Assembly (NCBI GenBank): GCA_964640155.1
Contig: CAZXEQ010000002.1
Span: 469,886 to 501,885, forward strand
Direction: 5' to 3'
Origin: an uncultured bacterium
GTDB lineage: Bacteria > Auribacterota > JACPWU01
DNA: 32,000 nucleotides
Both the position numbers and the translations under genes were made by a program. The notes beneath the pieces are model-generated. The model worked only from the letters and a program-made list of their open reading frames with translations. It ran no database searches and had not been told where the DNA came from. Position 1 is the first letter of the stretch. Every line of letters begins with the position of its first letter. Of this stretch, positions 4,161 to 4,555 are shown piece by piece.

Positions 4161-4555
4161 AAAGGGTCCTGCCCAACGAATCATGATTTACGATCTTCTC
4201 TCGTACGCATTCCAGCGACCGTAAAGAGATAATATTTAGTTTTCGTTTGTTAAAGCAGGAGATGAGTTTCGAAGAGGGGTGTCTTTTCCTTCGTTGCTTA
4301 CACTCGCGTGCGATCGCTCATCATTAGGATTCGTTGGTCACCCTCATTTATTTTTATGAATTGTTCAACGGAGTGTGAAGACCATTGGAAATCGAGTGAG
4401 CGCGGACCCCGATTGATCGGGGGAACGAGATTTCCGTTGAGTTAGTTTCCCTCGCAGGGGGAAACTAACGTGTCTGAACGCTCTGTTGGACGATTCATCC
4501 ATACGAGACAGTCTAAGACGCTAGAGTGAGTGATGAAAGTTGTGCAGGACCCTTT
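4161..4555 (+). ncRNA. Candidate large structured RNA (unclassified), plus strand, antisense in orientation to both neighbouring genes
   Basis: There is no ORF of 60 aa or more in 4033-4573 on either strand, and the region is visibly GC-richer than its flanks.

Nested helices read directly from the sequence:
- 4161-4172/4544-4555: 12 bp, extendable by 2.
- 4173-4182/4328-4337: 10 bp, perfect.
- 4183-4187/4320-4324.
- 4191-4195/4312-4316.
- 4203-4208/4306-4311.
- 4214-4219/4293-4298.
- 4358-4376/4478-4496: 19 bp.

The non-Watson-Crick positions in these helices are G-U on the plus strand and would be A-C on the minus strand. The closing helix is followed by TTTTTCTAT on the plus strand. Confidence 0.45.
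4358..4496 (+). repeat. Three-way-junction module, copy 1 (embedded in the 4161-4555 element)
   Basis: Structure read from the sequence:
- P1: 4358-4376/4478-4496.
- Tandem G-A/A-G at 4377-4378/4476-4477.
- 4379-4382/4472-4475.
- P2: 4387-4393/4429-4435.
- CCCCGA...TCGGGG hairpin at 4407-4422.
- P3 hairpin: 4441-4451/4459-4469.

Shares conserved sequence blocks with 8980-9116. Confidence 0.55.

Follow-up and report, generated by a model that had tools for sequence, protein, structure and literature searches.

The 32,000-nucleotide stretch of DNA considered here (the window; positions 469,886 to 501,885 of contig CAZXEQ010000002.1, assembly GCA_964640155.1) comes from an uncultured bacterium of the Auribacterota lineage. 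It is ordinary chromosome, with the thiGHS genes, an acyltransferase gene, and genes for a 1131-aa DUF7910 protein, a chlorite-dismutase-family protein and a DEAD-box helicase; no transposase, recombinase, integrase, invertase, TnpA/TnpB or reverse transcriptase was found among the window genes. Two of the intergenic spacers each contain a copy of a highly structured element, which is the subject of this study: copy A (4358-4496, 139 nt), between thiG and the acyltransferase gene, and copy B (8980-9116, 137 nt), between the convergent DUF7910 and chlorite-dismutase-family genes, both on the + strand. No credible open reading frame (ORF) was found across either copy. An initial annotation of the window had proposed that the two segments are versions of one three-way-junction module with compensatory changes in its helices, and that they represent a selected fold of RNA or single-stranded DNA, not a miniature inverted-repeat transposable element (MITE). 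The element is real and uncatalogued; its fold, its relatives and its possible roles are described below.

Fold and strand asymmetry of the two copies

The positions and the common architecture given in the initial annotation were borne out, in that each copy folds in this way on its own and the two are the strongest structure outliers in the window. Copy A folded alone reaches -73.3 kcal/mol (z -8.2) and copy B -64.1 kcal/mol (z -7.1), and none of 200 shuffled sequences was as stable in either case. With GC content corrected for, the copies rank at the top of 1,594 overlapping 140-nt scanning windows, with residual z of -6.6 and -6.1, the next best value being -4.3. The module consists of a core of ~100 nt, with a GC content of 50-54% compared to ~38% for the genome, and of a clamp helix of 17-21 bp. 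In both copies the long clamp is followed by one or two purine mismatches, a 4-bp RGAC/GUCY helix and a three-way junction; one branch of the junction is a long P3 arm, capped by the hairpin CCCCGAU-loop-AUCGGGG, and the other is a second hairpin, P4, bearing GGGGGAA. The junction bases (GAC-C.U..., a single A, and GU-GUC) are invariant across the copies. The core has two related hairpins, each with UCG(0-3 nt)GGGG(G)AA(A)C, as well as two tandem sheared G·A loops (Table 1).

The sequence blocks that had been singled out as conserved were recovered by pattern matching: CCCCGAT..ATCGGGG has two matches in the window, where none is expected, and GGGGGAA and CGTGTCYGAA were both confirmed. The sequence of the clamp helix is apparently free to vary. 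Its arms in copy A, GAATTGTTCAACGGAGTGT/ACGCTCTGTTGGACGATTC, form 19 bp including 4 G·U, and those in copy B, AAGAAGGATTTATTTTT/AAAAATAAATCCTTCTT, form a perfect helix of 17 bp; the outermost pair of the 4-bp RGAC/GUCY helix is A-U in copy A (4379/4475) and G-C in copy B (8998/9098). Both of these changes, made with the pairing kept, had been noticed in the initial annotation, and sequence and folds agree with it. The same had been claimed for the helices called P2 (GGAAATC/GATTTCC in copy A and GGCTTGT/ACAAGCC in copy B); both helices are real, but the alignments do not place them at equivalent positions, as the depth of the tandem G·A loop within the P3 arm differs between the copies.

The fold is specific for one strand. 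On the + strand copy A reaches -73.3 kcal/mol, compared to -48.6 on the - strand, a difference of 25 kcal/mol in favour of the former, and it contains six G·U pairs in the sense fold (four of them in the clamp) versus one in the antisense fold. All six 2x2 internal loops of the three copies, counting an ortholog of copy B (see below), are tandem G·A/G·A in the Y-GA-R context: UGAA/UGAA and CGAG/CGAG in copy A, and UGAG/CGAA twice in copy B and twice in its ortholog. On the opposite strand these loops would turn into UC/UC, that is, pyrimidine-pyrimidine mismatches. The asymmetry of the G·U pairs and of the tandem G·A loops therefore indicates that one strand has been shaped as a single-stranded fold. 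Both window copies are found on the G-rich strand.

Table 1. Coordinates of copies A and B, and of the inverted repeat around copy A, in the window
Feature	Position	Strand	Evidence or remark
Outer inverted repeat, left arm	4150-4177		A-rich stretch, then GGGTCCTGC
Copy A, 5' clamp arm, 19 nt	4358-4376	+	Pairs with 4478-4496; 4 of 19 pairs: G·U on +, A·C if read on -
Copy A, core	4377-4477	+	Minimum-energy fold, pattern matches, model matches, tandem GA loops
Copy A, core: tandem GA/GA loop	4377-4378 with 4476-4477	+	
Copy A, core: helix AGAC/GUCU	4379-4382 with 4472-4475	+	
Copy A, core: P3 arm	4386-4436	+	Contains hairpin H1, 4407-4422
Copy A, core: P4 hairpin	4441-4469	+	13 bp, GCA loop
Copy A, 3' clamp arm	4478-4496	+	Fold
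Outer inverted repeat, right arm	4539-4566		GCAGGACCC, then TTTTTCT; 8 nt from the acyltransferase stop
Copy B, 5' clamp arm, 17 nt	8980-8996	+	Perfect; begins 9 nt past the stop of the 1131-aa DUF7910 ORF (5575-8970)
Copy B, core	8997-9099	+	Fold, pattern and model matches; two tandem GA loops
Copy B, core: helix GGAC/GUCC	8998-9001 with 9095-9098	+	
Copy B, core: P3 arm	9005-9059	+	Contains hairpin H1, 9026-9045
Copy B, core: P4 hairpin	9064-9092	+	
Copy B, 3' clamp arm	9100-9116	+	Ends 4 nt short of the convergent chlorite-dismutase-family stop (ORF 9121-9876, -)

Homology of the copies and the inverted ortholog of copy B

The nearest genome is a metagenome-assembled genome labelled Candidatus Auribacterota (JAYRIK010000199, locus L002; hereafter, the relative), which is collinear with the window over 17 kb, at ~82-85% DNA identity. 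The spacer between the same two convergent genes in the relative contains an ortholog of copy B (L002 6923-7059), with the same arms and a reverse-complemented core. We built a covariance model from copy B and this ortholog, leaving copy A out, and ran it on 67 kb. The model recovered copy A in full length, at 63.8 bits and E ~2e-14, as the only other significant match in these sequences. A sequence-only profile made from the same alignment gave copy A 20.9 bits and covered only the core (4376-4478); therefore, ~43 bits of the score come from conserved pairing. No link between copies A and B was found by blastn, and the similarity of their sequences, taken alone, is weak.

The counts of base pairs tell the same story. 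They were taken from a MAFFT alignment of the three copies that was not fitted to the structure, in which 97.7% of the pair cells are standard pairs. Sixteen of the 45 pairs are changed on both sides yet still paired, and nine of these are in the core, outside the clamp; when partners were slid by one to three columns as a control, just one to three double-changed pairs were seen.

Copy B fills the spacer between the two convergent stop codons and has an A-rich 5' flank and a U-rich 3' flank, with tails that are moderately U-rich on both strands (GCUAUUACUUCUCUUU and CUUUUAGCUUUAU). Compared in the flipped register, copy B and its ortholog are identical at 125 of 135 positions (92.6%), against a background of 66-77% at third codon positions of the flanking genes and an average of 79% in eight other intergenic spacers; relative to the spacers, the binomial P is ~2e-5. 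The element is conserved above background and is therefore under constraint, or else is being homogenised; purifying selection is what the sequences would suggest in the former case. The 3'-terminal 49 nt of the copy B core are identical in the ortholog, and the ten differences are confined to the P3 arm. Loops account for five of them; there is also one compensation from G-C to A-U and one paired indel in H1, and two changes disrupt pairs.

Copy B is not bound to one orientation with respect to its neighbours. The perfect arms of 17-18 bp are the same in the window and in L002 and the core is in opposite orientation, as in an inverton; a Logan contig from the same sample as the window has copy B in the window's orientation. 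In the relative, where the core is flipped, 5 nt separate the stop of the other gene from the start of the sense strand. The folded strand is located just past a stop in both genomes, and the copy B fold would therefore represent the immediate 3' untranslated region (UTR) of a gene in each. The simplest cause of the flip would be recombination or template switching between the perfect inverted arms; small inversions of the loops of stem-loops, flanked by inverted repeats, are documented in plastid genomes, where the same mechanism is invoked (PMC9887819).

Distribution of the element and the surroundings of copy A

We searched several databases for the element. At gathering thresholds, the sole match between the whole window and the 4,227 families of Rfam 15 was a partial tRNA, cut by the window end (31947-32000, - strand; RF00005, 35.3 bits); searches at E up to 10, made with 4250-9250 and with each isolated element, gave only noise, at 12-18 bits. 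A match to a known Rfam family, which according to the initial annotation would have told against its proposal, was thus looked for and not found even at this permissive level. No thiamine pyrophosphate (TPP) riboswitch was detected anywhere in the window. There was no blastn match to the element in plasmids and phages, and no copy in two pattern scans of viral contigs. A strict pattern fitting both window copies has no matches in GTDB representative genomes, so the window genome is outside that set and the pattern is too strict for the ortholog. A looser, 20-base pattern found in the GTDB genomes only the known Auribacterota ortholog and two chance matches in coding DNA. A 24-base pattern had no matches in JGI metagenomes, and the 20-base pattern had six, none of which is a real copy according to the model (five weak partial, one nil).

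Covariance model R1, run over ~250 kb of loci, found no copies beyond the three known ones. These loci included ~46 kb from the window organism, 17 kb from the relative, and ~98 kb from relatives that are further removed, with proteins 58-67% identical (SRR32818137, GCA_016178005.1, GCA_016196885.1 and SRR12113387); the known copies are two in the ~46 kb and one in the 17 kb. From what these searches show, the family is narrowly distributed and has a low copy number.

Copy A is itself nested in an inverted repeat, with 28-nt arms (4150-4177 and 4539-4566) that are 82% complementary and separated by 361 nt (4178-4538). This enclosing repeat has the form of a bidirectional terminator, made of an A-tract, a GC stem and a T-tract, of which a canonical example is seen at 15768-15811. 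The 426-nt region around copy A folds with a z of -7.1; besides copy A, the outer repeat holds a weakly structured left domain (4168-4342, z ~-2 to -3). Copy A is absent from the thiG-acyltransferase spacer of the relative, and the spacers of the two genomes cannot be aligned beyond the conserved thiG promoter. The latter, at 4033-4096 on the - strand, drives thiG-thiH-thiS with a very short leader, is near-consensus (TTGACA-17-TATATT, hexamers spanning 4084 to 4056), and is 95% conserved in the relative.

The corresponding spacer of the relative (L002:2342-2576) is occupied by different, nested GC-rich hairpin modules within an outer helix of ~20 bp, with z of -7.6 on the + and -8.4 on the - strand and no Rfam match. 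A second repeat family is present at non-orthologous loci of both genomes (L018:1-83 and L002:2484-2563); it is terminator-like and has the form GAGCACGGTGG...GGCCC...TTTTTGAAG..., and a contig of the window organism starts inside it. In the window, the 11-mer ATTTATTTTTA occurs exactly twice, at 4346-4356, just outside the 5' arm of copy A, and at 8987-8997, in the 5' arm of copy B; it may be a trace of ancestral arms or an AT-rich coincidence.

Logan contigs from two independent samples, 100% identical to the window and from the same organism, both start exactly at 4470, just after the 13-bp P4 hairpin of copy A and a little 5' of its 3' clamp arm; other Logan contigs end at 4192 and 4222, and copy B is assembled through without a break (loci L001/L023, L024, L008/L025 and L026). 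With k=31, the break at 4470 fits equally well a repeat bounded at ~4499, the outer end of the clamp arm of copy A, a population variant, or a loss of coverage at the P4 hairpin; by the first of these accounts, more copies of the A type could exist. A simple inversion between the arms of copy A was rejected as the cause, as junction comparison puts such a break elsewhere.

Elsewhere in the window, a near-palindrome at 27586-27634 (23-nt arms, 83% complementary, with a 3-nt spacer) lies in a spacer of 26% GC that precedes the gene at 27710; with a residual z of -4.0, it ranks with the more structured segments.

Possible roles and similarity to known elements

The element was compared to known classes of elements that might account for it. 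Copies A and B have arms of unrelated sequence, and the sequence-only model aligns nothing but the core; target-site duplications and TA ends are both absent, and the flanks (TTTTTAT/ATCCATA in copy A, CTAAAAG/GCTATTA in copy B) share a direct repeat of at most 1-2 nt. The element therefore does not have the defining features of a MITE, and the initial annotation was right that the classic MITE signature is missing. An origin as a selfish repeat is still conceivable in view of the inversion, the narrow distribution and the mosaic spacers. REP and REPIN elements were discarded because the element, at ~137 nt, is branched and has neither GTAG nor CGTC at either end. R boxes of the attC type are seen only in copy A (GTTCAAC, 4363-4369; GTTGGAC, 4485-4491), and the window encodes no integrase; the matches to R''/R' (RYYYAAC and GTTRRRY) are probably due to chance, because copy B and its ortholog in L002 do not have them. 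IS200/IS605 elements do not fit the left flanks, which differ from copy to copy (GTGA, TTTA and TTAA at the core; TTAT and AAAG at the arms), and no TnpA/TnpB is found in the window. A phase-variable inverton, for all the exchange of orientation at copy B, is not indicated by the other features of the site: no invertase in the window, no promoter-like site inside the element, and flanking genes that are convergent.

Several RNA classes were also set aside. The UUGAUGA...GAAU strands of copy B, reminiscent of the CUGANGA...GAAA core that joins the three helices of a hammerhead, pair together as a symmetric GA/GA loop and are missing in copy A, and there is no Rfam match. A retron msr-msd would be out of place among the neighbours thiG, acyltransferase, DUF7910 and chlorite-dismutase-family genes, with no reverse transcriptase. 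RNAs resembling 5S RNA and RNAs of the C/D-box or k-turn type were ruled out on sequence or topology, again with no Rfam match. Copy A is close to thiG, as a TPP riboswitch would be, but it is on the other strand and has no match to this riboswitch.

We tentatively favour, as a model, a lineage-restricted family of selected, self-folding, strand-specific modules that would act as RNA at the 3' ends of mRNAs. The module would be transcribed as the extreme 3' end of a message. The clamp, together with the A-rich and U-rich flanks, would serve as a two-way terminator or as a block to 3' exonucleases, and the twin hairpins, invariant in sequence (UCG..GGGGRAAC), may form a recognition surface for a putative protein, which would probably be a dimer or have two binding sites. 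The perfect inverted arms would allow the core to flip by recombination or template switching, and the flip would be tolerated at copy B because the site is between convergent genes, where either orientation ends in a 3' UTR. A more elaborate version, a functional RNA module on an invertible cassette or '3'-UTR inverton', in which flipping moves the module between the 3' UTRs of two convergent genes, seems very improbable; if it were true, a population could switch which of the two mRNAs carries a protein-binding, stabilising or self-cleaving RNA.

A number of observations weigh against the favoured role at mRNA ends. The folded strand of copy A is antisense to the acyltransferase gene, which ends 78 nt away and is the sole gene able to read through it; upstream of copy A neither a + strand gene nor a sigma-70-like promoter was found, and copy A itself lacks a U-tract. 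Copy B does have U-rich tails, but weak ones, and was not called as a terminator in the scan. The perfectly conserved arms of copy B, next to ten changes in the P3 arm, look more like homogenisation of inverted repeats than compensatory drift. In the ortholog the core is inverted, the relative has no copy A, the family does not extend beyond two genomes, and neighbouring spacers hold other hairpin modules and the second repeat family. The covariation statistics are thin, with three sequences from two genomes and a structure derived from those same sequences. Finally, DNA energy parameters give the same fold and the same strand asymmetry, and therefore the asymmetry cannot separate RNA from single-stranded DNA. 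The initial proposal, taken as a whole, is partly supported: a selected fold is upheld by the pairing-preserving changes, the 43-bit gain, the strand asymmetry and the conservation of the ortholog, and its two alternatives, RNA and single-stranded DNA, are not separated.

The main rival explanation, which we consider doubtful, is a low-copy, non-autonomous palindromic mobile or selfish repeat (in the broad REP/BIME/MITE sense), lodged at the symmetry centre of terminator-like palindromes; the hairpins would then be recognition sites for a transposase or recombinase encoded elsewhere, and the RNA fold would be a by-product. It would account well for two diverged copies 4.6 kb apart, for the absence of copy A from a syntenic relative whose spacer has other hairpin modules, for the opposite orientation of the orthologous copy, and for the nesting of copy A within another inverted repeat. 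The second, unrelated repeat family, common to both genomes at different loci and with a contig starting inside it, the breaks at 4470 in two samples, which a repeat ending at ~4499 would produce with k=31, and the 11-mer ATTTATTTTTA in the arm of copy B and just outside that of copy A point in the same direction. Bacterial MITEs, moreover, have lengths below 200 bp and fold into long stem-loops, and sites of dyad symmetry can be their targets (PMC2229807). Such an origin fits less well with the absence of conserved terminal repeats, target-site duplication and TA ends, with the GC-rich core in a genome of ~38% GC, and with the scarcity of copies, which number two in ~46 kb and one in 17 kb of the relative and were not found in the ~98 kb of distant relatives, in the GTDB representatives (beyond the ortholog) or in the JGI metagenomes. 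Retention of an orthologous copy at 92.6%, well over the neutral rate, would not be expected of junk DNA, the asymmetry of the G·U pairs and tandem G·A loops speaks of selection on one strand, and the window encodes no transposase or recombinase.

Two other explanations were considered. A free-standing functional RNA with its function in the core, be it a protein-sponging or scaffolding small RNA freed from the clamp helix by RNase III or a new self-cleaving ribozyme, for which the position at gene ends would be incidental, appears unlikely. Junction bases and hairpin stems are invariant and the peripheral helices covary, tandem G·A motifs are typical of folded functional RNAs, and a long, perfect double-stranded clamp would suit RNase III; copy A, for its part, is in no gene's sense 3' UTR, and the region of ~420 nt at 4150-4566 folds as a larger closed structure ending in GCAGGACCC and UUUUUCU on the + strand. 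However, no promoter was found for such an RNA, no Rfam relative appeared at E up to 10 even for isolated elements, there is no proper hammerhead core, the hairpin loops vary among the copies, and the flip of copy B would part the core from any fixed external promoter. Even less probable, in our opinion, is a site acting at the DNA level, either as a folded single strand that is an attC-like or IS200/IS605-like substrate, or as a phase-variable inverton with a recombinase working on the arms. A fold just as good is predicted for single-stranded DNA, the two genomes have the core in opposite orientations between perfect inverted repeats of 17-18 bp, both window copies are on the G-rich strand, and the arms of copy A contain RYYYAAC and GTTRRRY (GTTCAAC and GTTGGAC, see above). 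Against this, copy B and its ortholog have no attC R boxes, no target tetranucleotide is conserved among the left flanks, and the window has no gene for an integrase, invertase, TnpA or TnpB; no promoter is found in the invertible part, a flip between convergent neighbours would not switch one, and the L002 copy, with the same genes on either side, is on the opposite strand.

If the element is a selected RNA, as in the role that we prefer, it would add a new family of structured RNAs, from Auribacterota, a candidate phylum of the PVC group that has hardly been studied. Its organisation is unusual, with a clamp helix that is free to vary, a branched core that is fixed, and two copies of a G-rich hairpin motif in that core. 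The inverted ortholog is a natural experiment, in which one module works, or at any rate is retained, in the 3' UTR of one or the other convergent gene. If the element is instead a mobile palindromic repeat, its conserved part is internal and not terminal, which would imply a mechanism of mobilisation unlike that of classic MITEs. The reach of either conclusion is narrow, as the element is known from two genomes only.

Among known systems, the MITE-like RNA-hairpin repeats (Correia/NEMIS, ERIC, RPE and YPAL; PMC2229807) are similar in that they are 100-200 bp long, non-coding, located at gene ends and found in both orientations; their ends pair in a long stem, they are co-transcribed with their neighbours, as our element would be, and effects on RNase III processing and mRNA stability have been proposed for them. 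These repeats, however, have conserved termini (often TA), target duplications, A+T-rich sequence and numerous copies (PMC2229807), whereas the termini of the present element are unrelated between copies, its conserved part is a GC-rich core, there is no duplication, and few copies are known. The REP/BIME/REPIN elements are likewise extragenic palindromes found between convergent genes in mosaic spacers, and REPs have a proposed role in termination or mRNA stabilisation; they differ in being simple hairpins of 20-40 bp with a conserved tetranucleotide tag and high copy number (PMC3733652).

Orphan RNA motifs known from comparative genomics share with the element the covarying helices around conserved junctions and hairpins, the tandem G·A loops and the strand-specific fold. 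Compared to RNAs of the Rfam type, it belongs to none of the 4,227 families of Rfam 15, is known from two genomes, and has an inverted ortholog, which is unusual for a cis-acting RNA. The small hairpin-associated inversions of plastid genomes (PMC9887819) are comparable in that a segment between short inverted repeats is flipped between close relatives, but there the segment is a few neutral bases, and here it is a 100-nt core under selection in a bacterial genome. Intrinsic bidirectional terminators, too, are located between convergent stops and have A-rich 5' and U-rich 3' flanks, and the hairpin that encloses copy A has their GC stem and T-tract. An intrinsic terminator needs just a short GC hairpin, to which the element adds a conserved, branched insert of ~100 nt; we know of no role for such an insert in termination.

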